Assembly (NCBI GenBank): GCA_965221795.1
Contig: OZ244914.1
Location: 303,180-367,179, forward strand
From: Candidatus Poriferihabitaceae bacterium
Lineage (GTDB): Bacteria > Pseudomonadota > Gammaproteobacteria > Arenicellales > Poriferihabitantaceae
Direction: 5' to 3'
DNA: 64,000 nucleotides
Shown one piece after another: positions 5,153 through 41,620 of the stretch. How positions within the stretch are numbered: the first letter of the stretch is position 1; each line of letters begins with the position of its first letter. The notes under the pieces were generated by a model. It was not told the DNA's origin and did not search any database. It saw only the letters and a list, made by a program, of their open reading frames with translations. The translations under genes were made by a program, and so were the position numbers.

Positions 5153-5158
5153 TTGGAT

Positions 5159-6217
5159 ATGAATAACCATCCGGACCGTTCCATGCCCGTCGACATCACT
5201 CCTTCGGACGATCTGCCACAGGCCACGAAAGCCAGTACTCTGACCCGTCGGCAGACCGTCATACAGGGAGAAAAGCTGCGCGGGGCCGACAAGACTGCCC
5301 GTATCCCGGTCAAGGTGGAAGTCAAACCCCGTTCGGAACGACTGCGGAAACCGCACTGGATCCGGGCCAGTTTCCCCGGGACTCCGGCGGTGGCAGATCT
5401 CAAGAAAATTCTCCGTACTCAAGGGCTGCATACGGTTTGTGAAGAAGCCGCCTGCCCCAATCTCGGGGAATGCTTTGGGCGGGGAACTGCAACCTTCCTG
5501 ATTATGGGAGACATCTGTACCCGGCGCTGTCCCTTCTGTGACGTAGGCCACGGCCGGCCCAACCCCCTGAATCCGGATGAACCGGAAAAGCTGGCCGAAA
5601 CTATTGCCCGGATGCAACTGAACTATGTCGTCCTCACGTCCGTAGACCGCGATGACCTGCGAGATGGCGGTGCTGCCCATTTCCGTGCCTGTATCGCCTC
5701 CGTTCGCCGACACTGCCCCACTACCCGCATCGAAATCCTGACCCCAGACTTCCGGGGTCGCATGGAGGTGGCACTGGACATCCTGACTCAGGAACCCCCG
5801 GATGTCTTCAACCACAACCTGGAAACGGTCCCTCGCCTGTATCGCAAGGTCCGTCCTGGTTCGGATTACCAATTCTCCCTGGATTTGCTACAACAGGCCG
5901 GTCGTCTGATGCCAGGGATGCCCACCAAGTCCGGCCTGATGCTGGGGTTGGGCGAATCCCGGGAGGAAGTCGTGGCCGTCCTGCAGGACCTGAAAGCCCA
6001 TGGTGTCCGCATGCTGACCCTGGGCCAGTACCTGCAACCCAGCCCCCACCATCTGAACGTCGAGCGGTATTGGACGCCTGCCGAGTTTGACGCGCTGCGG
6101 GCGCACGGCGAGGACATGGGATTTGACCATGTGGCCTCCGCCCCCATGGTCCGTTCTTCCTATCATGCCGATCGGCAGGCCGAAGGGAGTGAACCAGGGC
6201 GGGTTGCGAACCCCTGA
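5159..6217 (+). CDS. lipA: lipoyl synthase
   Basis: Radical-SAM and auxiliary cluster motifs are present ([22 protein letters not shown]). The ORF-track start at 5153 is TTG; the ATG at 5159 is taken as the start. It begins 7 nt after the gcvP stop. Confidence 0.9.
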
Positions 6218-6230
6218 CCCCCCCCCCCCC
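6218..6230. repeat. homopolymeric C13 tract immediately after the lipA stop codon
   Basis: Counted directly: TGA at 6215-6217, followed by 13 consecutive C. Confidence 0.95.
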
Positions 6231-6528
6231 ACCCGCAGAGGGCGGTGGCGAATCAAGCAGAAACCCGGATCCCTTGTACCATCGGGTCGAATCAATCGGT
6301 ATCCATACGCAATCGCCAAGTTGGGGATGGAGCATGCCCCTCACCTTTCTATCGTCTCAGCGGAAGGCCGCCTTGACAGAATATGGTATTTGCGCCCGGG
6401 CAAAAATCGGATTATCATAGTGCAACATTATTGTGGGTAGGCTATATGTCTGCACTGGGCGGTTTTGGACTCGGTCCGGCCCGTCATTTCATTCATAACG
6501 ATTATTTCTTAATTCTTGAGGATACCCC

Positions 6529-7548
6529 ATGAATATGACGAAAGCTGCAGCGATTGCTGCAACTCTCTCCCTTGCGGCCACGACCGCGCAGGCCGGAACA
6601 TTGGAAGATGTACAGGCCAGAGGCACCCTGAATTGTGTGGTGACCACTGGTGTGGCGGGTTTCGCGGCCCCGGACGAAAACGGTCGTTGGGAAGGCTTTG
6701 ATGTCGATTTTTGTCGTGCCGTCGCGGCAGCCGTACTGGGAGATGGCGACAAAGTCAAATTCATCCCCACCACCGGCAAGACCCGTTTTACGGTGTTGAA
6801 TTCGGGTGAGGGAGACATCCTGTTCCGGAATACCACGGAAACCATGAGCCGGGATGCGGACCTGAAACTGACTTTCCTCCCGGTCAACTATTATGACGGA
6901 CAGGGCTTTATGATTCGAAAGGGCATGGGCATCACCTCGGCCAAGGAATTGGATGGGGCCTCAGTGTGCATCCAGACCGGCACCACCACCGAACTGAACC
7001 TGGCAGACTTCTTCCGCATCAACAACATTTCCTACGAACCGGTCGCCCTGGAAACCAACGAGGAAAGTATTGCCAACTACGAAGCCAATCGTTGTGACGT
7101 CTACACCACAGATGCCTCCGGGCTGGCTTCTACTCGCGCCGCGCTACAAGACCCGTCTGCGCACATCATTCTGCCGGAAATCATCTCCAAAGAGCCTCTG
7201 GCCGGTGCTGTCCGCCATGGAGACGACGAGTGGGCCGATGTTGGCAAGTGGGTGGTCAATGCCATTATCTCTGCCGAGGAACTGGGCATCACCCAAGCCA
7301 ATGTGTCCCAAATGGCGTCTGCGGCCGGTGACAACCCGAGTGTCAACCGCCTGTTGGGAACCGAAGGCAATATGGGCGAAATGATTGGCCTCGACGGCCA
7401 ATGGGCCGTTCGTGCGATTTCCGCAATTGGGAACTATGGGGAGAGCTTCGAACGCCACATCGGTCCCAATACCCCTATCGGATTGGAACGTGGCCTGAAC
7501 GCTCAATGGTACAATGGCGGTATCCTGTATGCCGCGCCGATTCGCTGA
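6529..7548 (+). CDS. aapJ: general L-amino-acid ABC transporter, periplasmic substrate-binding protein
   Basis: 339 aa with a signal peptide (AATLSLAATTAQA). AapJ/BztA-like translation. First gene of a four-gene ABC cluster. Confidence 0.8.
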   Translation: MNMTKAAAIAATLSLAATTAQAGTLEDVQARGTLNCVVTTGVAGFAAPDENGRWEGFDVDFCRAVAAAVLGDGDKVKFIPTTGKTRFTVLNSGEGDILFRNTTETMSRDADLKLTFLPVNYYDGQGFMIRKGMGITSAKELDGASVCIQTGTTTELNLADFFRINNISYEPVALETNEESIANYEANRCDVYTTDASGLASTRAALQDPSAHIILPEIISKEPLAGAVRHGDDEWADVGKWVVNAIISAEELGITQANVSQMASAAGDNPSVNRLLGTEGNMGEMIGLDGQWAVRAISAIGNYGESFERHIGPNTPIGLERGLNAQWYNGGILYAAPIR

Positions 7549-23535: not shown

Positions 23536-25119
23536 TCAAAATTTTTCAGTCCGAATCTCCAGAAGATTCCGTTGTGTTTGGTCAAACACCATGCTGATCA
23601 GGTGGATTGGTTCGCCACGACCCTGATACTTCTTTGCATAGCTCTTCTCCCGAATCTGGGTAATTGCACTGTCGAGAATTTCTTCAACCGTCGAGTTTTT
23701 CTCCAGCATCTTGAATTCAAGGACGAAAATCTGACCTTCATGCAGCAGCACCATGTCTGACCGACCATGGCTTGTACTTTCCTCTGCCCGGAGATCAACC
23801 TCCATGGTTTTAAAACACGTATACACCAGACTCGCATACCAGGACTCGTAATAACCAAGATCACCGCTTTGATACCAGAAATAAGGAATGCTGGAGAAAA
23901 GTCTCTGAATCTGCTCTTTCAATGCCGGAAAGTTGTTTTCGCCCAGATACTGAACCAGTTTCCTACCCGTATATTCAGCCATCCGGCCGTTCCCCGTCAG
24001 ATGCTGGATAAATCCTTTATTGAACCGTTTCTGAATTTCGAGATTCGGATAGTCCAGTTGGTATACCGTTTGATCCTCATCTTCCATCTCCCGGGCAATC
24101 GTCAAATATCCAGACTGAAACAAAAGGGCATCAATGCTGAAAGAATCCAACTCGAAATTCGCAATATCTTCCTCATCCACTTCGCGGTTTTCCAGTTGCA
24201 TGGAACTGATCTTTCTCTCCAGTAACAACCGATACAGGTAGCCAGGCTGTCCAGACCTGAACCAGTGAGCCTGAAACTGACGTTTTTTAAAAAGATGAAG
24301 AATGTCGTGTGGATTGTAGAGTTTCTCCTCACCGAGCCAGTGGTAGCCGTTATACCAAGCTCGGATCCTGTCCCGGTCCAGTCCTTCAAGCTCCGGAGCG
24401 AACACTGTCTCCAAATCATGACCCGTGTATCCGCAAATCGATGCCATGGGAGGGTAAAGGCTGATATCGTCGAGATTGTTCAGACCCGAAGAAAAACTGG
24501 TTTTGGAAAACATCGTGATGCCGGTGACGAAGACAAAGCGGATATGTTTTTCGGCATCCTTCAGAATACTATACAGATTGCGTAATTTATCCCTGTTTGT
24601 CCGGGCTTGCTCGCGGTTCTCCAGCACATTCAGGACAGGACGGTCATATTCATCAATCAGTACTACTATCTGATGACCCGTCGCCTGGTGGAGACGAATC
24701 AGGATACTCCTGAGCCGCTCGGGAGCAGATGTTACCGGGGGCAAAGATTTCAGCTCAAACGCCAACTCGATTTCGTATAACTGGTTAAGAACCGTATTTT
24801 GTATCTCATCAGGCGTATCAATGTCCCCACCGAAACTCAAGCGGACTACGGGATATTTGACCGACCAGTCCCAATGAGGGTGAATATGCAGACCCCGAAA
24901 CAGGGACTCGTTTCCTTCAAATAACTCCTGCAAGGTATCGACCAGAAGGCTCTTGCCAAAACGGCGGGGGCGTGAGAGAAAGTAGTGTCGCCCGCTACGA
25001 ATGAGCTCTCGAATCAGCGGTGTCTTGTCGACATAGTAACAACCCTCTTCGCGGAGGATGGAAAATGTCTGAATCCCCATTGGCAGGGGACGCCGCTCTG
25101 TCCGGGTTTCTGTATTCAT
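23536..25119 (-). CDS. AAA-ATPase-like (PF09820-type) protein with C-terminal PD-(D/E)XK (PDDEXK_9-type) domain
   Basis: The N-terminus FSILREEGCYYVDKTPLIRELI...YFLSRPRRFGKSLLVDTL is characteristic of this family. The C-terminus (GRSDMVLLHEGQIFVLEFK) is a PD-(D/E)XK-like core. The start is taken at MNTETR (25119). Confidence 0.7.
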   Translation of the reverse strand: MNTETRTERRPLPMGIQTFSILREEGCYYVDKTPLIRELIRSGRHYFLSRPRRFGKSLLVDTLQELFEGNESLFRGLHIHPHWDWSVKYPVVRLSFGGDIDTPDEIQNTVLNQLYEIELAFELKSLPPVTSAPERLRSILIRLHQATGHQIVVLIDEYDRPVLNVLENREQARTNRDKLRNLYSILKDAEKHIRFVFVTGITMFSKTSFSSGLNNLDDISLYPPMASICGYTGHDLETVFAPELEGLDRDRIRAWYNGYHWLGEEKLYNPHDILHLFKKRQFQAHWFRSGQPGYLYRLLLERKISSMQLENREVDEEDIANFELDSFSIDALLFQSGYLTIAREMEDEDQTVYQLDYPNLEIQKRFNKGFIQHLTGNGRMAEYTGRKLVQYLGENNFPALKEQIQRLFSSIPYFWYQSGDLGYYESWYASLVYTCFKTMEVDLRAEESTSHGRSDMVLLHEGQIFVLEFKMLEKNSTVEEILDSAITQIREKSYAKKYQGRGEPIHLISMVFDQTQRNLLEIRTEKF

Positions 25120-25269
25120 GATCCAGCTATCATAGCATGATGATATGGTTGCATATTCAGCCTCCGCATGACTATGCAGGAGCAGAAATCGCAATCGCCT
25201 GCTTTACGGGCACGCGAATTGAATTCGACTTGTTGCTCGACATTGTCGTCAACAGGAATGCGTTCATAT

Positions 25270-29025: not shown

Positions 29026-32000
29026 GCTGCGGATTGCGGCCGTTTCTCGATTTGCTACACTCCCAAGTAAATTGACCGAACAACCCGCCTTGCTGCGGAT
29101 TGCGGCCGTTTCTCGATTTGCTACACTAGCACGATTACCGGCCTGCAATTGAGCTTGGCTGCGGATTGCGGCCGTTTCTCGATTTGCTACACTGCCGGAT
29201 CGATCGCACAGATTGATCATGGCGCTGCGGATTGCGGCCGTTTCTCGATTTGCTACACTTATGATACTCACCTAAATCGTCGCTAGGACGCTGCGGATTG
29301 CGGCCGTTTCTCGATTTGCTACACTCTGCGGGCAACGATAACCAGCGAAAGACGGGCTGCGGATTGCGGCCGTTTCTCGATTTGCTACACTCTTTGCCCG
29401 TGCCGATGCCGCCTTGATCCAGCTGCGGATTGCGGCCGTTTCTCGATTTGCTACACTGCGCTTGCGCAGGATACTCTTCGGAGCGGCGCTGCGGATTGCG
29501 GCCGTTTCTCGATTTGCTACACTTCCGAGCGATGCGCCAATTGAGACGCAAATGCTGCGGATTGCGGCCGTTTCTCGATTTGCTACACTTTGCCGCTTAG
29601 ACTGCCGGTACGCAATATCGCTGCGGATTGCGGCCGTTTCTCGATTTGCTACACTGTGGATACGTATTCGTTCTACGTCCCCATGGCTGCGGATTGCGGC
29701 CGTTTCTCGATTTGCTACACTGATACGCTGCATGATGTCATGTTCGCGACCGCTGCGGATTGCGGCCGTTTCTCGATTTGCTACACTTTTCTGCACCAGT
29801 TTGATCCTCGGAGCAGAGCTGCGGATTGCGGCCGTTTCTCGATTTGCTACACTCTCTCGCCAAGAGTCGCTACAATGGTCCACGCTGCGGATTGCGGCCG
29901 TTTCTCGATTTGCTACACTCGACCTCTGAAAGTTGACGCCTAGAAGTCGGCTGCGGATTGCGGCCGTTTCTCGATTTGCTACACTGCACAGAACTAGGTG
30001 GAATTGTGTCGACGAGCTGCGGATTGCGGCCGTTTCTCGATTTGCTACACTCTTCGGTTACATCACCTGATAACCCTCCTCGCTGCGGATTGCGGCCGTT
30101 TCTCGATTTGCTACACTCCCATTGATTGCGCTAGTCAGTTCAGAGGCGCTGCGGATTGCGGCCGTTTCTCGATTTGCTACACTGCGATCTAGGATGTCCT
30201 TAGTTATATACTTGCTGCGGATTGCGGCCGTTTCTCGATTTGCTACACTCGGTTTTACCGCGAATATGGCCGCTATCCCGCTGCGGATTGCGGCCGTTTC
30301 TCGATTTGCTACACTCGGTTTTACCGCGAATATGGCCGCTATCCCGCTGCGGATTGCGGCCGTTTCTCGATTTGCTACACTAAACTGGACAAAAAGCAAC
30401 CTCCGAAATCCGCTGCGGATTGCGGCCGTTTCTCGATTTGCTACACTCACGAACTGGAGACTGCGATTCGGGAGTCCGCTGCGGATTGCGGCCGTTTCTC
30501 GATTTGCTACACTTCTGGTTCTAACGAGGTCGATCAGGTCCCCGCTGCGGATTGCGGCCGTTTCTCGATTTGCTACACTTTCTTGCACCTCGATATATTT
30601 TGCTTCGCCGCTGCGGATTGCGGCCGTTTCTCGATTTGCTACACTAGATAATGACCTTATTACTTCACAGCTCAAGCTGCGGATTGCGGCCGTTTCTCGA
30701 TTTGCTACACTCGGCTTGCTCACGATTGGATAAAGACTCGTGCTGCGGATTGCGGCCGTTTCTCGATTTGCTACACTATGGGCTGCCGCTGTTGAGTACA
30801 TCCTGAAGCTGCGGATTGCGGCCGTTTCTCGATTTGCTACACTAATGTGCATGCCTCCACCGTACATGTGGATGCTGCGGATTGCGGCCGTTTCTCGATT
30901 TGCTACACTTCAGGCAAAAGCGAATCTCCAGCAGCGCATGCTGCGGATTGCGGCCGTTTCTCGATTTGCTACACTCTTACTGCGATTGAGTTGAGTTCGA
31001 GGAATGCTGCGGATTGCGGCCGTTTCTCGATTTGCTACACTCAACTCGGACAGGGTCAGATGGTCCTGACTGCTGCGGATTGCGGCCGTTTCTCGATTTG
31101 CTACACTAGTTCTGTGGCGCCAACCGAAAGGGAGATAGCTGCGGATTGCGGCCGTTTCTCGATTTGCTACACTTCTCGTCGGACACGACATGAGGAGGGT
31201 AACGCTGCGGATTGCGGCCGTTTCTCGATTTGCTACACTTTAGGCAGCACGACGCCAATCAAAGCAGACGCTGCGGATTGCGGCCGTTTCTCGATTTGCT
31301 ACACTGTCCGTACCAGTGTAGTCAATTCCTTCTTCGCTGCGGATTGCGGCCGTTTCTCGATTTGCTACACTTGAGGATTCTCATGTTATCGCTGTTCAAT
31401 AGCTGCGGATTGCGGCCGTTTCTCGATTTGCTACACTGAATACTAGAATACATCGCATCATAGTCGGGCTGCGGATTGCGGCCGTTTCTCGATTTGCTAC
31501 ACTACTACACCTTGAGGCTTGACCCTCGCGTCGGCTGCGGATTGCGGCCGTTTCTCGATTTGCTACACTTATCAACTGGTCTCCCTCACCACTCTTTCCG
31601 CTGCGGATTGCGGCCGTTTCTCGATTTGCTACACTGTGTGACGTGCGGAGATAAAGCCGACTGCAGCTGCGGATTGCGGCCGTTTCTCGATTTGCTACAC
31701 TAGCTCGGGCGGTGGGCATCGAGGGGCGACCGCTGCGGATTGCGGCCGTTTCTCGATTTGCTACACTATGAGTGTAAAGCTCGACAATTTCAGACATGCT
31801 GCGGATTGCGGCCGTTTCTCGATTTGCTACACTGTTAAGTAGCTCCGTCAAAGCGCCTTCGGCGCTGCGGATTGCGGCCGTTTCTCGATTTGCTACACTA
31901 TATGAGTATATATATATATATGAGTCCGAGCTGCGGATTGCGGCCGTTTCTCGATTTGCTACACTTTGCAGAACAGGAAGGTCTGCGGTTGGACTGCTGC

Positions 32001-32624
32001 GGATTGCGGCCGTTTCTCGATTTGCTACACTCTCGCGAAGCATGGGGATCCAACGTTCGAAGCTGCGGATTGCGGCCGTTTCTCGATTTGCTACACTTTT
32101 CGCCTCCTGTAGCGTCTTTATATCCTCGCTGCGGATTGCGGCCGTTTCTCGATTTGCTACACTGTGCTCCAGATTTGCCATGCTCCAAGACAGGCTGCGG
32201 ATTGCGGCCGTTTCTCGATTTGCTACACTCCCCCCTTAACGGAGCCCCGGACTCCCCGGGCTGCGGATTGCGGCCGTTTCTCGATTTGCTACACTAATGG
32301 GTTGACCGCGAAAGTCGACGTTGAAGCTGCGGATTGCGGCCGTTTCTCGATTTGCTACACTTTCCATCTGCTGCTTTCTTTCGATTGTCCTGCTGCGGAT
32401 TGCGGCCGTTTCTCGATTTGCTACACTGGACAAGGCGCAAGGACTTATTAGTGTCCAGCTGCGGATTGCGGCCGTTTCTCGATTTGCTACACTCTCCTGC
32501 ACTTCAATGTATTTCGCCTCTCCGCTGCGGATTGCGGCCGTTTCTCGATTTGCTACACTTTAAGTAGCTCCGTGAGAGCACCTTCCGCGCTGCGGATTGC
32601 GGCCGTTTCTCGATTTGCTACACT
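29026..32624 (+). CRISPR. CRISPR array, part 1: 55 copies of 36-bp repeat GCTGCGGATTGCGGCCGTTTCTCGATTTGCTACACT with 30-nt spacers (one of 29 nt)
   Basis: The period is 66 bp from 29026, and all inspected repeats are identical. The last repeat is 32589-32624. The + strand is the predicted crRNA sense (see the tracrRNA and promoter findings). Confidence 0.97.
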
Positions 32625-32671
32625 AAATAACAAAAGGGAATTATATCGAATAGTAACATTGGCCCTTTGAT

Positions 32672-32839
32672 CTAGGGCTTTTTGGACTTCTGAAAAAAGG
32701 CCCGTTGCAGCGTAGCCAGGTCCGCTCCGGGCATCTCATATTCCCGTTCCAGTTCCGCTTTGCTGGGCTGGTAGTGGACGTCAAAGGGATCAGGTGTGGG
32801 TCGGGTCTTTCTGTGTGATGTATTGGACCTTGTTTTCAT
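32672..32839 (-). CDS. small hypothetical protein (about 55 aa) inside the IS
   Basis: ORF 32672..32896. The internal ATG (MKTRSNTSH) is preceded by GAGGA. No family recognised. Confidence 0.25.
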   Translation of the reverse strand: MKTRSNTSHRKTRPTPDPFDVHYQPSKAELEREYEMPGADLATLQRAFFQKSKKP

Positions 32840-33024
32840 AGCAGATCCTCGGAAAGTCGGGGAATTATCTGTAATAATAACCCAACCACACAACAATACA
32901 GCACATTCATGACAGGTACAACGAAATCTGCTAGTCTGAAGAGAGGCAGACCGCAGACCGCAATTTAAGTGTCGGCCCGAACTGGGCTAACCAGACCATC
33001 TGGACAGGGGACAATCTCCCCATC

Positions 33025-34203
33025 ATGCGGGGGATGAATTCGGAGTCTGTGGACCTGATCTATCTGGATCCCCCGTTCAACTCCAAAGCCGATTATGCGG
33101 CTCCGATCGGCAGCCGGGCTGCCGGTGCCGAATTCAAGGATACCTGGACCTTGCAGGACGTGGATATCGCCTGGCTGGACCTGATCGAAAACAAACACCC
33201 GAAATGATGGCGGGTCATACAGGCTGCCATGACCAACAGCGATAAGTCCTATTTGATTTACATGGCAGTACGGTTGTTGGAAATGCAGCGGCTGCTGAAA
33301 CCAACAGGAAGCATTTATCTTCATTGTGATCCGACGATGAGCCACTATTTGAAACTGGTTATGGATGCCATCTTTGGACGGGAAAATTTCAAGAATGATA
33401 TTATTTGGAATCGCTCAGGAGGATTCAAACGGAAAACGGCTCGCCTTTTTCCCACCAAAAACGACAATATTCTCTTTTATGCACTGGACAGTAAAATCCA
33501 TACATTTTCTACCCAATACAGACCTCACAGGCCGGAATACATAAAGCGGTTTAAGGCCGACGCTTCTGGAAGGCTGTTTCGTTCTGATGTCAATCCAACT
33601 GGCGGCGGTCGCCGTACCATTTATCTGGATGAAACTTTAGGAGATATTGTCGACTCTGTTTGGATAGATATTCCTCCTGCAAATCCGGCGGCAAAAGAAC
33701 GTGTGGGTTATCCAACACAGAAACCGATTGCTTTGTTGCGACGCATCCTGAAAGCTTCCTGTCCCGAAAACGGGGTTGTGCTGGATCCTTTTTGTGGATG
33801 TGCTACCACGTGCGTTGCAGCGGAAGAATTAAGCAGGCAATGGGTGGGAATTGATATCAGTTCCAAAGCCTATGATCTGGTCAAGGATCGAATGGACCGG
33901 GAAATCGGCTTCTCTACCTATACTTGCCCCCATCGCACGGATATTCCCCAGAGAACGGATATCCAGCCATTAAAGCGGTATAACCACCCGGACAACCGGA
34001 AATACCTGTACGGCGAACAGGGAGGGATCTGTAACGGCTGCCGGGAACATTTTCTGATCCAGAATTTTACGGTAGATCACATCATTTCTCGCAAGCAAGG
34101 AGGGACCGATCATCTGGACAATCTGCAATTGCTCTGTGCCCGATGCAACTCGGTCAAGGGAGACCGAGGGCAGGAGTATCTTATAACAAGACTGGCTGCG
34201 TGA
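33025..34203 (+). pseudogene. beta-class N6A/N4C DNA methyltransferase fused to a C-terminal HNH nuclease domain, interrupted by an in-frame TGA
   Basis: Motif IV DLIYLDPPFNS lies upstream of motif I (VLDPFCGCATT). The HNH motif is CNGC...DHIISRKQGGTDHLDNLQLLCARCNSVKG. ORFs 33025..33207 and 33229..34203 are in the same frame and are separated by TGA at 33205-33207. Homology (ANQTIWTGDNLPIM) extends upstream of 33025 without a canonical start. Confidence 0.75.
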
Positions 34204-34211
34204 CCTGTCGA

Positions 34212-35156
34212 CTACGCCTGGATCAAATCCACATAACGCAACCGCTTCCCCTCCATTCGCCTGACCATCCAGTCCATCTGGTCCATGGTGTCCAGTTCGC
34301 GGTCATTGAACCGCCCGGAAAATTCATGGACATAACGGTTCAAGTGCTTCTCGCTCATATGGTGGTAAGTGCCATGGTAGCCCCGCTTCAGTAACGCCCA
34401 AAACGACTCAATGCCGTTGGTGTGGGCTTGGTCGTTCACCCACTCACTAACCGAATGTTTCACCGTTTCATGGGGATTCGGGAGCCCTTGGTAGCCCTTC
34501 CATTCGTCGCTGTAAATCGTGGTCGTGTATTCGGTGACCTCGCCCAGGAATTCGTGCAGGCAGGTTCTGCTGGCCGAAGGAATGACCTTGGCTTGGATGG
34601 TGTTGGTTTCCCGATCCTTGGCTCCGACCACCGTCGCTTTCCCCACGGCTCCCCGACCCGCATGTAGTTTCTTGTGGGCATGCTTGTTGATCTCCTTGCC
34701 GCCGATGTAAGTCTCATCTACTTCTACCGGCCCCGGGAACTGACCCGTTTCGGATTGGAAAACATCCCGGAGCCGATGCAGCATAAACCAGGCCGCTTTC
34801 TGTCCAATGCCCAATTCCCGGTGCAGTTTCATCGAACTGATGCCTTTCAGGTTCGTAGTGAACAGGTAAATGCCCACGGCCCAATGACGATACTTGATCT
34901 TGGAGCCTTCCATCACCGAGCCTTTCTTTACGCTGAACATCGGCTTGCCCTTACACTCCCGGCAACGATGGGTCATGGTGGGATGCGTAATATCACTTTG
35001 CACATTGTGGGTTCCACAATGAGGGCAGACCGGACCATCCGGCCACCGCCATTCCTCAATCCATTTGCGGGCGCTTTCCTCGGTGCCAAACATTTCCGCA
35101 ATTTCCAGAAGCGTTAATCCTTTCCTTTTGTACTTACCGGGTGCTGACTGGGCCAT
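34212..35156 (-). CDS. IS1595-family (ISXO2-like) DDE transposase
   Basis: 314 aa with an N-terminal zinc ribbon (CPHCG...CRECK) and a DDE_Tnp_IS1595-type core (VEVDETYIGGK...IYSDEWKGY...HTNGIESFWALLKRG). Confidence 0.9.
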   Translation of the reverse strand: MAQSAPGKYKRKGLTLLEIAEMFGTEESARKWIEEWRWPDGPVCPHCGTHNVQSDITHPTMTHRCRECKGKPMFSVKKGSVMEGSKIKYRHWAVGIYLFTTNLKGISSMKLHRELGIGQKAAWFMLHRLRDVFQSETGQFPGPVEVDETYIGGKEINKHAHKKLHAGRGAVGKATVVGAKDRETNTIQAKVIPSASRTCLHEFLGEVTEYTTTIYSDEWKGYQGLPNPHETVKHSVSEWVNDQAHTNGIESFWALLKRGYHGTYHHMSEKHLNRYVHEFSGRFNDRELDTMDQMDWMVRRMEGKRLRYVDLIQA

Positions 35157-35269
35157 GATTCTGTCTCGGTTACGATTTACTGAATAGTAACATTATGGTC
35201 AATTTGTGTCAACTGAAAATGTTACTTTTCGATATAATTCCCTAACAAAAAAATAATCGTATTGGGCGG

Positions 35270-36955
35270 GCTGCGGATTGCGGCCGTTTCTCGATTTGCT
35301 ACACTGACACGGAGAACTGTGTCACGCCAGTATTTGCTGCGGATTGCGGCCGTTTCTCGATTTGCTACACTTCCAGCGGGTGCGATGGCGCCAGCCAAAG
35401 GGCTGCGGATTGCGGCCGTTTCTCGATTTGCTACACTTCCATCAAGGATATCGAGAGCATCCATACGCTGCGGATTGCGGCCGTTTCTCGATTTGCTACA
35501 CTACGCTTACGAAGGATGCTCCGCGAAGCGGCGCTGCGGATTGCGGCCGTTTCTCGATTTGCTACACTCCCAAACAGTATCTGCCTTCTCAAGCCGAAGC
35601 TGCGGATTGCGGCCGTTTCTCGATTTGCTACACTACGCTTACGAAGGATGCTCCGCGAAGCGGCGCTGCGGATTGCGGCCGTTTCTCGATTTGCTACACT
35701 AGCTTGGCCCTTATTAGCCAGTGCCTGTAAGCTGCGGATTGCGGCCGTTTCTCGATTTGCTACACTTCCATACTAAGCGACTCCTAAAGAAGATAAGCTG
35801 CGGATTGCGGCCGTTTCTCGATTTGCTACACTGAGAAGGGCCATCCATGGCGGCCATCTCGCGGCTGCGGATTGCGGCCGTTTCTCGATTTGCTACACTG
35901 AAGTAAAATCTCGACAAATCATGAATTTGGCTGCGGATTGCGGCCGTTTCTCGATTTGCTACACTACCGCCGCCTAAGTACTCACGATTGGCAGAGCTGC
36001 GGATTGCGGCCGTTTCTCGATTTGCTACACTTTTTGAGGTGATTAGCCCGAACACCGTAAAGCTGCGGATTGCGGCCGTTTCTCGATTTGCTACACTAGT
36101 AATATGTGGACGGATTGTCTCGCCCGGGCTGCGGATTGCGGCCGTTTCTCGATTTGCTACACTCGCAAGCGTTTGTTTAAGTCTCGCGCAGACGCTGCGG
36201 ATTGCGGCCGTTTCTCGATTTGCTACACTCTCACGAAGCATGGGAATCCATCTCTCGAAGCTGCGGATTGCGGCCGTTTCTCGATTTGCTACACTAGCAG
36301 CCAAGGCGCCTTGCGTTTGCATAGAGCTGCGGATTGCGGCCGTTTCTCGATTTGCTACACTCACCTCGTGTTGCTCCTGCTGCTGTTTCATGCTGCGGAT
36401 TGCGGCCGTTTCTCGATTTGCTACACTACCAAAGAGTGTCCTGTGTCAAGAGAGACCGCTGCGGATTGCGGCCGTTTCTCGATTTGCTACACTCTCACGC
36501 AACATCGGAATCCAGCGCTCGAAGCTGCGGATTGCGGCCGTTTCTCGATTTGCTACACTCCGTCCTTAGTCGTGGCTAGACTCGCTCAGGCTGCGGATTG
36601 CGGCCGTTTCTCGATTTGCTACACTACAGGTTAGTCAACAAAACGCTCGTTCTGCGCTGCGGATTGCGGCCGTTTCTCGATTTGCTACACTCCATCAGGC
36701 GACTCCAAGTGAGGATAAAGGGCTGCGGATTGCGGCCGTTTCTCGATTTGCTACACTTTGCTCTGTAACGTGGGGTGAAAGCGCAGAGCTGCGGATTGCG
36801 GCCGTTTCTCGATTTGCTACACTTACCACCAAGGGCAGTGCCGATGCCGAGAAGCTGCGGATTGCGGCCGTTTCTCGATTTGCTACACTGGAATTCTGAC
36901 TGATCGCCCACGCCTCATCGCTGCGGATTGCGGCCGTTTCTCGATTTGCTACACT
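35270..36955 (+). CRISPR. CRISPR array, part 2: 26 copies of the same 36-bp repeat with 30-nt spacers
   Basis: The 66-bp period is exact from 35270 to the last repeat at 36920-36955. The repeat is identical to that of part 1. Confidence 0.97.
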
Positions 36956-37005: not shown

Positions 37006-37341
37006 TCAAAAAAGTTCCAGTTGGGCGGGCGGGTTCGGCAATGTCTGTCGTTTTTTTCCGACATGGATCTCTATCCGACCGAACTGTTTGTCGGTGATTG
37101 TCAGGAATCGGACTTCCCCTGCGAAAGGTACCCGGTGACCCATCCTTGCAGTGTGAACCTTGGCGTTTTCAATAGATGCGCAGTGCCGTATGTAAACGGA
37201 ATACTGCATCATCGTAAAACCGTCTTTTATTAGCTCTTTCCGAAATCTGGCATAGGCCTTACGGGCTGTTGGCGTGTCTGTGGGAAGGTCGAACATTGCA
37301 ATTACCCACATCGAACGCCAACCCCATGGGATTGCTTTCAC
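37006..37341 (-). CDS. cas2: CRISPR-associated endoribonuclease Cas2
   Basis: 111 aa with a Cas2-type translation (IAMFDLPTDTPTARKAYARFRKELIKDGFTMMQYSVYIRHC). It lies directly downstream of cas1. Confidence 0.9.
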   Translation of the reverse strand: MKAIPWGWRSMWVIAMFDLPTDTPTARKAYARFRKELIKDGFTMMQYSVYIRHCASIENAKVHTARMGHRVPFAGEVRFLTITDKQFGRIEIHVGKKRQTLPNPPAQLELF

Positions 37342-37367
37342 CCTTTCTGCCTTCGTCAGAGGATATA

Positions 37368-38303
37368 TCAGCCTGCGTCTGTGATATCAGACTGCCCGGG
37401 TTCCACCGGCAGACCCTCGGGTAAGGAAAGCTTCTGTTCTCCGCCAGTCAGAACTTGGCAAAGGGAAACCGCACTGGTATGCAAGGCTAGCAGCAATGGT
37501 TCCTTACGGCCTCCAACAAGAATGGTTTCGTTGAGTAATGCGAGGAGTTCAGCGCGATTTTTCCGTATCGATAGATCGGGTACTGGCTCGCCTTCATCCT
37601 CTGTCAACTGCCGGACACGCCAGTCAACGTATGGCCGATACGGCTCCAACAGATCGTCCGCCAGACAGAAAGGGTTGCTCCGGTGGCGGTGATGTACACC
37701 CAGAGATGGGATCAGTCCCACTGCGACCACGGCCCGGGCGATTGCAGCACGAACAACAGCATAGCCGTAATTCAGTAGTGCATTCACGCCTCCAGCACTC
37801 CGGTCCCGACGGAAATCCTTGCCGAACAGGCGAGGCCAGTATCTCTGTGCAGCCTGTGCCTCAAGATTTTCCGGATCGCCAGAACGTACTCGGCGAGCCA
37901 TGGCGGTGAGGCCTCCATGACTATCGGTGAAATGCGACAGTACGGCAGCCTGCTGCCTGATCTTGGCTTGTACGATCTCCTGCCATGCACGTTTTGAGGT
38001 CGGCTTACTGGCACCGACCTGCGCACGATGCCGTTCCGTCTGAATATGATGCGCATCAAGAGGCAACATCATTCCGACGGGTAAATGGTCGTGGCCGGTG
38101 ACCAGCACGGTTGCACCGGCCTCCAAAAGCGAAAGAAAGACAGACTGCGTGTAGGTCGCCTGGATGTCGTCGACAATCACTACACCCAAGTCTTCGATCG
38201 GGAGCGTCGCCTTTGGCAGGTCGAGCCGCTCGATCACAAGCTGTGAATTCGCAACGGAAAGGCGAGTTCCGGGAGTTGAGAATTCCACGGTCTTGCGGAT
38301 CAT
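37368..38303 (-). CDS. cas1: CRISPR-associated endonuclease Cas1 (type II)
   Basis: 311 aa with a Cas1-type translation (NALLNYGYAVVRAAIARAVVAVGLIPSLGVHHRHRSNPFCLADDLLEPYRP). Confidence 0.92.
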   Translation of the reverse strand: MIRKTVEFSTPGTRLSVANSQLVIERLDLPKATLPIEDLGVVIVDDIQATYTQSVFLSLLEAGATVLVTGHDHLPVGMMLPLDAHHIQTERHRAQVGASKPTSKRAWQEIVQAKIRQQAAVLSHFTDSHGGLTAMARRVRSGDPENLEAQAAQRYWPRLFGKDFRRDRSAGGVNALLNYGYAVVRAAIARAVVAVGLIPSLGVHHRHRSNPFCLADDLLEPYRPYVDWRVRQLTEDEGEPVPDLSIRKNRAELLALLNETILVGGRKEPLLLALHTSAVSLCQVLTGGEQKLSLPEGLPVEPGQSDITDAG

Positions 38304-38315
38304 GATGGTATGGTT

Positions 38316-41300
38316 TCAGTCGTTTGCCGGACGGACCCGGCCAGCTGGGTCGACGGAAACCTTCCTTCCGCCGCCTTTGACGATTGCAGTTGCTTTAGGA
38401 CGAAACTCGGAAGTTCCGGTCGCATCATCATGATCAACCATAACAACTTGGCCCGATGTCCAGACACCTTTGACAATTCGAATTTTCTCTTCACCATTCT
38501 TGGCAAATTGCAACGAATCACCGGGAGATAACGACATGACAAATTTCGCACCATCTCCACGGTCACGGCAAACTACCGGTTGCCGTCGTCCAATACGTCG
38601 GGAGGCTTCCAGCAAGCTCACCACCTCATAATCGACGGTGTTATCCGGCAAACTATAGATGGCGATATGGTGGTTGTTGCCCAAGTCGGCATGACCCGTA
38701 GAAACGGATGCCATCAGATCCATTTGCCGTTTAATACGCAGGCGAACCTTCCGGATTTCCGGACCCTTTCGACCTCGCTTCGGATAGGGTGGGAAAGCCT
38801 TCTTCGGCTCTCCACCGTGCTGGTCAACCCAGCCTTTGATGATATCCCGTACCTTTTGGTCGGGCCACAGGTCCCTGTTCTTTTCCTGCAGGGTGTCCTT
38901 GCTCAGCTCCTCGACATTCTTGCGTGTTACGAAATATCGGTAAGTTGGCCGGCCCTTGGAAGCATCGTCCTCACCTGTATTGCCGTAAACTGTCTCTTTA
39001 TGCAGGGGGCCGGAAACCTTTTTTCGTACGCGATGGGATACAACAATGGTCATGACTTCCTTTTCGGCATCGCGTCGAATCGTCCCCCACGGTAGTTCAA
39101 GGCGTGGGGCTATGGAGTGGAAGTTATCCTCGTCCTGCCAGTAGCGTGAGAGTTGCTGGGTCATCCTAGGGTGACAGCACGCGACCGTCAGGGCATCAAT
39201 TGCGTGGTGCCGGTGGTCAGCACGGTTTTTTTCACCATTATCAGCCAGTATGTTGCTGAGTCCCCATAACCGGCGGAGATGTGCGGTGACCCGTCCCGAA
39301 ACAGCATGAACCTTGACAGAGGACTCTGGACCAACGTCTGGCCAAAGTTTCTTCAGATAGGTAACAGCCTCACGGGCCGCATAGCCTGTGTCGTTCAACT
39401 GTCGAGCGGCAAAATCTTCCGGAATGGACATCGCCAGGAATCTCCTGATCTTGCCATGGGACATACCAATCCCCCCACTTTTCGGTGCCTTCATTCCATA
39501 GAGTCTGGTAACCAGAGCCTCCCATCCTGCGGAATCGTCGCGAAAGAATTCATATGGAATCCGATTGCTCTTTTGGAGGTTCACATCCTTGCGGCATAGA
39601 GTCTTGTTCTTGAAACTATCATCAAGGGAGCGCGAGCGCGGCCAGATATGCTCCACTTCGAATTTTCCGGATTTGAACAAATCATCAAATGAAATGGAAT
39701 CTCCTGTGTACGGACAGAAATATCGACTCTCTTCCCACAGCATCCACTTCTCAACATCTGCCCGAGAAGGCGTAGGAATACCTTTTTCCTGAAGCTTCTC
39801 GCGTGCTGCCTTCCGGCGACGTTCCTGCCGCTTGATTCCAGCTGCCCTTTCCTCACGTTGACGTTTCGAATTACCCACATCACGCGCCATCTCGACGCGA
39901 ATCAGGTCTGGCTTTCCGAACATGTCGATCAGATTGTTAACTACCTTCCGCAGTTCATTGCGAGTGCGTGCTACCGTAGGGTTCCGCAGCTTCTTGACAT
40001 GCTCACACTCTTCCCGGTCTGCGGGACTGGGAAGGCGATCAAACACCTCGCCGGTAGGTTGCTCACGACCCGGGAAAGTGTCGGTTCGCCATGGTTCCCA
40101 GGCGGGACCGTTGATGATTTCACCAAATCGGACGCCAGCTTCAAGATGCGGCAGCATCGCCTGCAGCGCATCAATGGAATAGGGCTCCCACCCGGGTGAG
40201 AATTTCAGGATCTCGATTGCAGATGCCTGATCATCGGATAGATCAAATTCCGCGGCCAAACGGCGTACGGTTTCCGACCTGCGGGACTGACGCTCGGATG
40301 CAGGGAGAATAGTCACGCGCTGGCCGCCGACTTCATCGTAGTCCGCCTGCCTGATCCTGTCCGGCAGTGCATCCCTGATTTCCTGTTTGCATGGATGATC
40401 TTGCCAAGCATCCCCGAAGATTCCCGCCAGCTTTGATTCAATAGCATTGCCGAGCAGATTTCTCTCGCCGCCCTCTTCCAGATTGAATTTCAGTGCTCTC
40501 TCCTCACCAGCTTGACCACGCGCCCTGTATAGAGGTGCAAGCGCTCTCTGAACGCCTTTCCACGTCATTGATGCTTGGGTTTGAAGTCTTGCAAGTATGG
40601 CCGCTCTCTCTTCTTCATCCAGATGCCGCTGGTTTCTGCCGGTGATCGAGAGATTGTTGAGCTTTTCCAGCATACGCCTTTGCTGTGACAGCCAGGACCC
40701 CTTCGGGCAGAGACGCGCATCGGGGACAAATGGACATGTGCCAAGGGTGTTCAATCGCCAGAAAACGGGGCGCTGGAAGAAGATCGCATCCCGGATGGAA
40801 GAGCAGAATGATTCCGGCAGAAGCGGTGACCAAACGGAATCGAATTCATGCGCGACGATGTAACGTGTGGCATGTTCGCCTCTCTTGCGTTCATGCGAAC
40901 CACGCCCGGCCAGCCAGGCACCAAGGGTCTTTTCTTCACGCTTGATTTCCTTGATTGTTTTTTCGCGTGCAGAAGAGGCCTTCTTATCGTCATCACCGTC
41001 ATCAGAGGACTCGGCTCCATCCACAATCTCGTCGAGATCACGACCCTTGAAATGTCGACGCTGTGCTAGATGGTAGATGGCCCGGCCAATTTCATGCGGA
41101 GACAGGGGATACCCCTCAAATCCTCGCCTCCGCAGATCATAGGGATCCCACTTCATCACTTCGTTCCATTCCGTGGACCCTCGTTGCGGAAGGAATCCGG
41201 CCTGGAACAGTTGTTCACCGAGAATACGGCGACGCTCCCGGCGGCGGCGCAATTGACGTCGCCGCAGGCGTGCCTGCCGTCGTTCCTGATTTAATGGAAC

Positions 41301-41438
41301 ACCCCTAGGGTCCCGGGCTTCGGGAAAAATGCGGACACCAAGGCGATGGATTTTTCCTGTAGCTCTCTTCGGGTCGTGTTCTATTACGGCAAATCCGATT
41401 GATGTCGTTCCGATATCGAATCCGAAAGTCAGTGGCAT
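38316..41438 (-). CDS. cas9: type II-C Cas9 (about 1,040 aa)
   Basis: It has RuvC-I FGFDIGTTSIGFAV, an Arg-rich bridge helix RQARLRRRQLRRRRERRRIL, RuvC-II IRVEMARD, HNH FEVEHIWPRS...NKTLC...NLQKSNRIPYEF and RuvC-III DHRHHAIDAL. No csn2 or cas4 is present, hence II-C. The start is set at MPLTFGF (41438). The ORF-track extension to 41534 covers the predicted tracrRNA anti-repeat and is rejected. Confidence 0.93.
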   Translation of the reverse strand: MPLTFGFDIGTTSIGFAVIEHDPKRATGKIHRLGVRIFPEARDPRGVPLNQERRQARLRRRQLRRRRERRRILGEQLFQAGFLPQRGSTEWNEVMKWDPYDLRRRGFEGYPLSPHEIGRAIYHLAQRRHFKGRDLDEIVDGAESSDDGDDDKKASSAREKTIKEIKREEKTLGAWLAGRGSHERKRGEHATRYIVAHEFDSVWSPLLPESFCSSIRDAIFFQRPVFWRLNTLGTCPFVPDARLCPKGSWLSQQRRMLEKLNNLSITGRNQRHLDEEERAAILARLQTQASMTWKGVQRALAPLYRARGQAGEERALKFNLEEGGERNLLGNAIESKLAGIFGDAWQDHPCKQEIRDALPDRIRQADYDEVGGQRVTILPASERQSRRSETVRRLAAEFDLSDDQASAIEILKFSPGWEPYSIDALQAMLPHLEAGVRFGEIINGPAWEPWRTDTFPGREQPTGEVFDRLPSPADREECEHVKKLRNPTVARTRNELRKVVNNLIDMFGKPDLIRVEMARDVGNSKRQREERAAGIKRQERRRKAAREKLQEKGIPTPSRADVEKWMLWEESRYFCPYTGDSISFDDLFKSGKFEVEHIWPRSRSLDDSFKNKTLCRKDVNLQKSNRIPYEFFRDDSAGWEALVTRLYGMKAPKSGGIGMSHGKIRRFLAMSIPEDFAARQLNDTGYAAREAVTYLKKLWPDVGPESSVKVHAVSGRVTAHLRRLWGLSNILADNGEKNRADHRHHAIDALTVACCHPRMTQQLSRYWQDEDNFHSIAPRLELPWGTIRRDAEKEVMTIVVSHRVRKKVSGPLHKETVYGNTGEDDASKGRPTYRYFVTRKNVEELSKDTLQEKNRDLWPDQKVRDIIKGWVDQHGGEPKKAFPPYPKRGRKGPEIRKVRLRIKRQMDLMASVSTGHADLGNNHHIAIYSLPDNTVDYEVVSLLEASRRIGRRQPVVCRDRGDGAKFVMSLSPGDSLQFAKNGEEKIRIVKGVWTSGQVVMVDHDDATGTSEFRPKATAIVKGGGRKVSVDPAGRVRPAND

Positions 41439-41458
41439 GCGTGATCTTCTGTTTCTTG

Positions 41459-41486
41459 TTGCTTTATACGAATCATATGCTAATAT
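41459..41486 (+). promoter_or_regulatory. sigma70-type promoter for the predicted tracrRNA
   Basis: The promoter is TTGCTT (41459-41464), a 16-nt spacer and TAATAT (41481-41486), with an extended -10 TG at 41478-41479 (TGCTAATAT). Confidence 0.5.
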
Positions 41487-41493
41487 CGTTTCC

Positions 41494-41620
41494 ATAGCAA
41501 ATCGAGAAGCGGTCGATTTCCTTTTCGCAAGCAAATTGACCCTTTGTGCGGGCTCGGTGTCCCAAGGTCATCCACCGGTTTTCTAAAGCCGCCGTTTCCA
41601 TTCGGAGGCTTTATTGCTTG
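41494..41620 (+). ncRNA. predicted tracrRNA (divergent from cas9)
   Basis: The anti-repeat at 41495-41532 (TAGCAAATCGAGAAGCGGTCGATTTCCTTTTCGCAAGC) is complementary to the +-strand repeat: 21 consecutive pairs including 2 G:U, then a bulged continuation to repeat position 1. Downstream lie hairpins CGGTG-13 nt-CACCG followed by GTTTTCT, and AAAGCCGCCG-8 nt-CGGAGGCTTT followed by ATT. The ends are approximate. Confidence 0.6.

Follow-up and report, generated by a model that had tools for sequence, protein, structure and literature searches.

A methyltransferase–HNH passenger gene, very probably disabled recently, in an active IS1595-family element

The element and its passenger gene

The 64,000-nucleotide stretch of DNA analysed here (the window; positions 303,180 to 367,179 of the forward strand of contig OZ244914.1, assembly GCA_965221795.1, from a Candidatus Poriferihabitaceae bacterium) contains a complete insertion sequence (IS) of the IS1595 family, which carries a gene for a DNA methyltransferase (methylase) fused to an HNH nuclease. 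Two lesions interrupt this passenger gene, which has very probably been disabled recently in this lineage of the element; the element itself is still alive: its transposase and both ends are intact, and several of its insertions are recent. Its main parts are the following (all positions are those of the window).

32628 to 32635: left copy of the target-site duplication, TAACAAAA, read directly and identical to 35243 to 35250
32636 to 35242: IS1595-family element with passenger gene ("transporter IS"), complete, 2607 bp, with inverted ends and 8-bp target duplication
32636 to 32660, plus strand: left terminal inverted repeat, GGGAATTATATCGAATAGTAACATT, 25 bp, 24 of them complementary to the right end
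32909 to 34203, plus strand: methyltransferase–HNH passenger gene, very probably a pseudogene; ancestral start ATG 32909, natural stop TGA 34201 to 34203
34212 to 35156, minus strand: IS1595-family transposase, intact, 314 amino acids (aa), with zinc ribbon and DDE domain (Pfam, NCBIfam)
35218 to 35242, minus strand: right terminal inverted repeat, 25 bp, pairing with the left end at 24 of 25 positions
35243 to 35250: right copy of the target-site duplication TAACAAAA, an exact match to the left copy

The transposase is the only long open reading frame (ORF) of the element besides the methylase–HNH gene. It matches PF12762 (ISXO2-like DDE domain, E = 7e-38) and PF12760 (N-terminal zinc ribbon, E = 3.9e-12), scores 180 bits against the NCBIfam model transpos_IS1595 (NF033547; cut-off 75), and displays a readable D...D...E-x6-K pattern. 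No such repeat pair arose in 100 shuffles, and none is expected by chance. The ends, GGGAATTAT, fit the ISNwi1 consensus (ggnnatTAT), and the length of 2.6 kb lies within the range of the ISNwi1+ group (1.75–4.75 kb, with 8-bp duplications and a DDEK signature), to which the element may belong. With IS1595 transporter ISs the element shares the zinc-ribbon and ISXO2-like DDE transposase, the short terminal inverted repeats, the 8-bp duplication, and mobility as a unit that includes the passenger gene, evident from five insertion sites; it differs in its methylase–HNH fusion cargo, which was not found in the literature searched. Passenger genes, methyltransferases among them, are described as a recognized feature of such elements in PMC11891212, which cites Siguier 2009.

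On the plus strand, positions 32935 to 34203 form a frame of 423 codons that is interrupted once, by TGA 33205 to 33207. A Pfam search of the passenger protein, made with this stop replaced, returned N6_N4_Mtase (PF01555, E = 1.7e-42) at residues 39–317 and HNH (PF01844, E = 3.2e-14) at residues 366–411. The following elements of the protein can be located, with residues numbered in the frame that opens at 32935; P0004 is the intact methylase–HNH gene of a sister element described below.

33067 to 33078, plus strand: methyltransferase motif IV, DPPF, catalytic; D45, P46, P47, and F48 invariant
33415 to 33669, plus strand: variable central region, the presumed target-recognition domain, of low identity to P0004 compared with its flanks
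33784 to 33810, plus strand: methyltransferase motif I, DPFCGCATT, binding S-adenosylmethionine (SAM); residues 284–292, D284 to T291 invariant
34030 to 34170, plus strand: HNH nuclease domain (Pfam HNH), with CxxC...CxxC zinc site and DH...N...N catalytic residues, all intact

Motif IV precedes motif I and the recognition region lies between them, which is the order of the beta class. The HNH core reads C-x2-C...DH...N...C-x2-C-N at about 34030–34150, and all of its invariant residues are kept in the window (C366, C369, D381, H382, N396, C401, C404, and N405). A previous inspection of the DNA made without database searches, referred to here as the sequence-only reading, had proposed a beta-class methyltransferase and a complete HNH motif in one frame, carried as cargo inside an IS and probably inactivated by an in-frame TGA. 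These proposals hold: both Pfam domains, the DPPF-before-DPFCGCATT order, and both CxxC pairs confirm the first, the inverted repeats, target duplication, and IS1595 transposase the second, and the TGA is present.

Two lesions in the passenger gene

Alignment with the intact sister gene reveals that the TGA is accompanied by a second lesion, a frameshift.

32938, plus strand: lesion 1, G against GG in the intact sister gene, which shifts the frame by −1 after codon 10 (DNA alignment with P0004)
33205 to 33207, plus strand: lesion 2, nonsense TGA in place of a Leu codon (TTA in the sister; ATTATGG in the sister, ATGATGG in the window)

After lesion 1, the upstream frame ends at TAA 32966–32968. 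The sequence-only reading had found no start codon ahead of the conserved N-terminal segment and a frame broken by a single TGA. It is correct that the 32935 frame has no ATG, GTG, or TTG ahead of ATG 33025; but P0004 begins at an ATG homologous to window position 32909, so that the ancestral start lies in another frame, and it is the loss of the G at 32938 that leaves the N-terminal segment seemingly without a start. The frameshift had been overlooked. The column occupied by the TGA holds Leu in 19 of 19 aligned homologues.

An exact look-up of the transposase retrieved four more copies of the element from another assembly (ENA ERZ25070844): two contigs of about 1 Mb, at about 78x coverage, contain three of them, and a 5-kb contig contains the fourth. 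Each is 2607 bp long, differs from the window copy by one base (33680), and is flanked by its own AT-rich 8-bp duplication (TAAAGTTA, AAAGAAAA, TTTCTTTT, and CTATAATA). At 33680 the window has C, giving Ala, and the four others have T, giving the Val of the family consensus; the change is a private mutation of the window copy. Both lesions are common to all five copies and two assemblies. Since every copy carries them, the lesions are real rather than errors; since these copies sit at different sites, they predate the recent spread of the element.

That the lesions reflect sequencing or assembly errors and that the gene is intact in the cell is accordingly hardly credible, even if the frameshift falls in a GG dinucleotide and the sources are metagenome assemblies. 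Identical lesions in four copies of a different assembly, including contigs covered about 78-fold, speak against it, and the TGA is a substitution rather than a homopolymer-length error. Sequencing error was therefore rejected, and the resequencing of 33205–33207 that the sequence-only reading had recommended becomes unnecessary, the same lesions being present at four other sites in another assembly.

A second possibility, likewise of very low probability, is recoding, in which selenocysteine, Trp, or Gly would be inserted at the TGA and a programmed −1 shift would restore the full-length enzyme. Both features are present in all copies and missense decay is not seen, as this explanation would have it. 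Yet TGA is the main stop codon of the window, where it ends 28 of the 38 ORFs of at least 300 aa as well as this gene, exactly where the homologues end; the homologues have Leu at the column in question and never Cys, selenocysteine, or Trp; no slippery heptamer occurs at 32930–32945; and P0004 has neither feature. Code reassignment or selenocysteine at the TGA was rejected on the first two grounds.

It is also improbable, if less so, that the gene works in pieces, with termination at TGA 33205 and a restart or independent start at ATG 33229, 21 nt downstream of the TGA. Both ORFs concerned are open and begin with ATG (33025–33207, 60 aa; 33229–34203, 324 aa). The 324-aa product would comprise the recognition region, the SAM-binding motif, and the intact HNH, and could serve alone as a nuclease or DNA-binding protein or form a split methylase together with the 60-aa fragment that holds DPPF. 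The same 60-aa and 324-aa division is present in all copies, gene calls annotate the 324-aa product in every one of them, and no conserved residue is mutated. On the other side, the 60-aa fragment lacks the conserved N-terminal strand (N16–L28 in the homologue alignment), and no clear ribosome-binding site precedes 33229. Among 85 related loci (those fetched, excluding this element's own copies), 83 have a single uninterrupted ORF and two an internal stop, so the split form is no habit of the family. The element has multiplied despite the toxicity to be expected of a nuclease deprived of its protective methylase, and a recent origin explains the absence of decay equally well, the copies being one base apart. 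The largest remaining ORF, 33229–34203, lacks the DPPF expected of an active methyltransferase.

By far the most probable account remains recent inactivation. In an alignment with 19 homologues, the window protein departs from the consensus at none of 112 invariant and none of 37 near-invariant columns; since no conserved residue has changed, the comparison points to a recent event. The ancestral gene extended from ATG 32909 to TGA 34203, about 430 codons specifying one polypeptide composed of a beta-class methyltransferase (probably N6-adenine), an exchangeable central target-recognition region, and a C-terminal zinc-binding HNH domain. In this lineage, loss of one base at 32938 has shifted the frame after codon 10, and a stop follows about 90 codons further on, where TTA has mutated to TGA (33205–33207). 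Both lesions arose before the latest transposition burst. The element has transposed into a CRISPR spacer (see below). Three considerations tell against this account: a 324-aa product starting at ATG 33229, a methylase remnant without DPPF but with an intact HNH, may be made; the total absence of missense decay is also compatible with some product still being under selection; and the other copies come from a second assembly that is assumed to represent the same or a very close strain. For annotation, the locus would be described as a recently inactivated passenger gene in an active IS1595-family element that disrupts a spacer of a type II-C CRISPR array.

The sister element

On the 5-kb contig (L005), the element copy (136–2746) adjoins a sister element (2747–5119), whose methylase–HNH gene, P0004, is intact and encodes 473 aa. 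The element copy, with its duplication CTATAATA, is inserted in a TATAAT-like box just upstream of P0004, and a transposase that is 64% identical to that of the window lies 3′ of P0004. The coverage of L005 is only about 5x, which may make it a minor variant or possibly a chimera. In the locus L002, positions 2646–2795 are occupied by a 150-bp miniature element with GGGAATTATATACC-type inverted ends and an 8-bp duplication of its own, TATGGAAG; this miniature appears to be non-autonomous and to derive from a related IS1595 element of that genome.

Extent and integrity of the methylase–HNH family

A protein search scored at least 8000 homologues, and 120 of 120 among the matches listed carry both Pfam domains; their lengths range from 383 to 486 aa, the one exception being the truncated 324-aa product of the window itself. 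Scanning a single genome per species gave at least 596 loci. Since all 120 homologues listed, of at least 8000 scored, carry both domains, and intact ones are single polypeptides, the view that the HNH part is a separate gene joined by misassembly, which the sequence-only reading had named as a possible refutation, was rejected. The same reading had called the cargo unusual; in the sense of rare this does not stand, given the shared architecture of the listed homologues and the IS1595-type transposases that accompany many loci (see the next section). NCBIfam has no model for the methylase–HNH fusion, and the matches obtained with PADLOC are to generic type II/III methylase models.

The hosts that bear a name, among them members of Poribacteria, Dehalococcoidia, Caldilineaceae, Acidobacteriota, Latescibacterota, Rhodothermales, and Alpha- and Gammaproteobacteria, are nearly all uncultured. 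Names such as Poribacteria, Poriferihabitaceae, and Spongiihabitans, together with isolate labels, suggest that the hosts come largely from sponge microbiomes. No match covering at least 80% of the protein was found among 72,556 plasmid records, and none covering 80% among 50,697 phage records, where only the methylase domain is matched; nearly all plasmid and phage matches end at the methylase part. The 2.9 million viral contigs of IMG/VR contain three full-length matches. A phage origin was rejected on the strength of the IMG/VR count and the methylase-only matches in phage records.

Some genomes have a pair of methylase–HNH genes only a few kb apart, or a further fragment with HNH alone beside the gene (L039, 646–1998 and 5567–5998; L080, 139–1323 and 4001–5446; L076, 5817–6080).

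A recurrent cargo of IS1595-type elements

Among 80 loci from species-representative genomes, an IS1595-type transposase, 28–56% identical to that of the window, lies within 1.5 kb of the gene in 21, and in one further locus at a distance of 2.1 kb. In at least 12 loci, inverted repeats of 19–29 bp enclose transposase and methylase–HNH gene in units of 2.1–3.4 kb, and many of these repeats begin with GGGAATTATA or GGGGATTATA, as do those of the window element. At least eight loci (L006, L009, L010, L012, L030, L040, L042, and L062) have units flanked by 8-bp duplications, exact in seven and matching at 7 of 8 positions in L030. The seven duplication-flanked loci with a clear phylum belong to Gamma- and Alphaproteobacteria, Latescibacterota, Chloroflexota, and Rhodothermales, that is, to at least four phyla. 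Gene order varies, the transposase being either upstream in the same direction or downstream and convergent.

One intact family member, P0063, occurs in three copies (L092, L093, and L094) on a 9.2-Mb Marinacidobacterales chromosome. As this gene is intact and nevertheless multi-copy, loss of cargo function is not needed for spread. In L092, where the element lies at 4989–6872, the transposase and a type I specificity subunit (Methylase_S) are merged in one gene call, suggesting that the P0063 element has inserted into a type I hsdS gene.

In a neighbor-joining tree of the family, the genes borne by ISs do not group apart from the solitary ones, and monophyly of the IS-borne copies was rejected on account of this scatter. 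The 59 of 80 loci without a transposase have heterogeneous neighbors. Solitary copies have no conserved partner gene beside them: 113 neighboring ORFs gave matches to 206 Pfam families, no family recurring beside more than three members, and with no recurrent neighbor, a restriction enzyme or another transposase was rejected as a partner. Nor do IS-type termini surround the solitary copies, GGGAATTATA-type ends in both orientations being confined to loci with a transposase; other inverted repeats around them are mostly weak.

Inferred function of the intact relatives

The architecture of the intact protein makes a self-contained restriction–modification-like module its most likely identity. 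The methylase would mark the host's sites and the HNH nuclease would cut DNA without the mark, so that the module would confer on the element that carries it a defense benefit, an addiction hold on the host, or both. This reading best accommodates four features: a methylase with sequence specificity, conservation of the nuclease, shuffling of the recognition region, and the absence of a partner gene. A role in modification plus cleavage, or in addiction, is plausible for the intact relatives and cannot apply to the dead copy of the window.

An AlphaFold model of the homologue P0002 (pLDDT 84, pTM 0.83) matches M.BceJIV, CcrM, M.RsrI, M.MboIIA, and the Mod subunits of type III systems over residues ~1–315, with TMt values of 0.7–0.82, a Foldseek E-value of about 1e-16, and TMq of at most 0.51. 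The closest folds are N6-adenine beta-class enzymes, to which sequence matches were obtained as well. DPPF, the adenine-type form of motif IV, agrees with them, so that the methylase is probably of the N6-adenine type. These enzymes have the same order of motif IV, recognition region, and motif I, with DPPF and DPFxGxG; unlike them, the protein described here has a linker of roughly 90 residues and an HNH domain appended to the methylase, whereas they possess no nuclease domain.

The family is mosaic. Identity to the window protein is distributed as follows in two homologues.

P0004: N-terminal part 90%, centre 27%, C-terminal methylase part 76%, linker and HNH 80%
P0002: N-terminal part 84%, centre 79%, C-terminal methylase part 65%, linker and HNH 54%

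Relative to the flanks, the two proteins show converse patterns, from which the central region behaves like an exchangeable recognition module.

An alternative, unlikely but more serious than those considered for the lesions, holds that the HNH domain is a selfish homing-type or nicking endonuclease that became joined to a methylase gene, or a helper in transposition or retention comparable to TnpB and IscB of IS200/IS605, with the methylase then an orphan. The best NCBIfam matches of the HNH part are indeed the corresponding domains of IscB and Cas9d (E = 3e-9 to 6e-10), and its sequence matches in the PDB are Cas9 and a group II intron maturase. Invasion of phage methylase genes by HNH genes is on record: in the "ShiLan" element, an out-of-frame HNH gene is inserted within actinophage methylase genes (PMC11855218). 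That HNH identity among homologues is uncoupled from the identity of the centre, and that the gene is scattered over unrelated neighborhoods, would fit as well. The likeness to "ShiLan" lies in the physical joining of an HNH to a methylase gene; in the present family, by contrast, the HNH is an in-frame C-terminal domain in all of the listed chromosomal homologues. Linker and HNH are conserved family-wide as one ORF, with R334, D336, P338, R340, and D342 invariant, the protein is kept at about 70% of loci without a nearby transposase, and it is nearly absent from viral contigs, all of which disfavors an independent homing or helper nuclease.

Resuming the restriction–modification-like reading, the closest formal parallels are the type IIC/IIG enzymes BcgI, MmeI, and Eco57I, in which a single chain likewise combines nuclease, methylase, and one exchangeable recognition region and needs no partner gene. 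Several points count against the assignment. Described type IIC/IIG enzymes combine an N-terminal PD-(D/E)XK nuclease with a gamma-class methylase. The arrangement here is a beta-class methylase followed by a C-terminal HNH, and the canonical domain types are not found. If the methylase–HNH protein is a restriction–modification enzyme, its domain order would make it a variant different from type IIC. Among solved structures, no entry or chain has the whole fused architecture. As to family-level function, no characterized member was found in the literature.

Mobile restriction–modification units that behave as selfish or addiction modules, such as the PluTI element (PMC2875022), resemble the present case in that a methylase and a nuclease move between genomes on a transposable unit and spread across phyla; here, a single gene in a simple IS is concerned, and the copy in the window is inactive. 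No paper was found on a methylase–HNH fusion protein or on this IS1595 cargo, the nearest published case being the differently arranged "ShiLan" insertion. The element hence belongs to a known category, and its cargo family appears to be known by its domains and functionally unexplored. It is a tentative proposal, less likely than not, that the family represents an undescribed one-gene restriction–modification or addiction module repeatedly adopted as IS1595 cargo. If this is true, the nuclease would punish loss of the element or attack incoming unmarked DNA, the methylase would protect the carrier, and IS1595 elements would in this way maintain themselves in dense communities associated with hosts (apparently the microbiomes of sponges) while spreading from phylum to phylum; the lineage in the window would then show the aftermath of module loss, in which the bare transposon still spreads. 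One-gene restriction–modification modules of this kind would be a compact new enzyme type, and a simple insertion sequence would carry its own defense or addiction function. A one-chain methylase–HNH cargo of IS1595 elements that crosses phyla and is nearly always intact deserves specialist attention.

Minor features of the element

Three further features lie in the arms of the element.

32672 to 32839, minus strand: ORF of 55 aa, basic, in the left arm, present in all element copies
32860 to 32881, plus strand: internal repeat that agrees with the left end at 18 of 22 bases and closely precedes the cargo gene
35184 to 35212, minus strand: promoter-like site (TTGACA, 17 nt, TG-TACTAT) upstream of the transposase, 10 of 12 matches, by consensus scan only

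The 55-aa ORF has no Pfam, NCBIfam, or PADLOC match, and its tblastn matches are confined to this element's own copies; the sister element has a different, dissimilar small ORF in the equivalent position and orientation (L005, 1–102). The internal repeat may be a second transposase-binding site, part of the cargo promoter region, or both; the corresponding position of the sister element is occupied by a TATAAT box. The promoter-like site lies between a subterminal repeat (35182–35194) and the right end of the element.

The insertion site and its neighborhood

The element lies within a CRISPR array.

29026 to 36955: CRISPR array of 81 identical 36-nt repeats; the element interrupts one spacer

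It is located between the repeats at 32589–32624 and 35270–35305, and removal of the element together with one copy of the duplication restores a normal spacer of 30 nt. The insertion separates the 26 repeats nearer the cas genes from the other 55. Beyond the array, Cas2, Cas1, and Cas9 (1072 aa) are encoded at 37006–41534 on the minus strand; as no other cas genes are seen, the layout is that of type II-C. The spacers of the array match neither the element nor the related loci. Two spacers are each present twice (30250 and 30316; 35503 and 35635), one pair being adjacent and the other two units apart.

At 41495–41508 (minus strand), at the 5′ end of the long cas9 ORF, 14 nt are perfectly complementary to part of the CRISPR repeat and are a candidate anti-repeat of a trans-activating CRISPR RNA (tracrRNA). 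They also hint that the true cas9 start lies downstream of TTG 41534. The polynucleotide phosphorylase (PNPase) encoded in the window shares 79% identity with its counterpart in an Arenicellales genome and 77% with the one in "Candidatus Spongiihabitans", which places the host among the gammaproteobacteria close to these lineages. Positions 23536–25194 (minus strand), at a distance of a few kb from the array, encode a 552-aa protein with AAA-ATPase_like and PDDEXK_9 nuclease domains.

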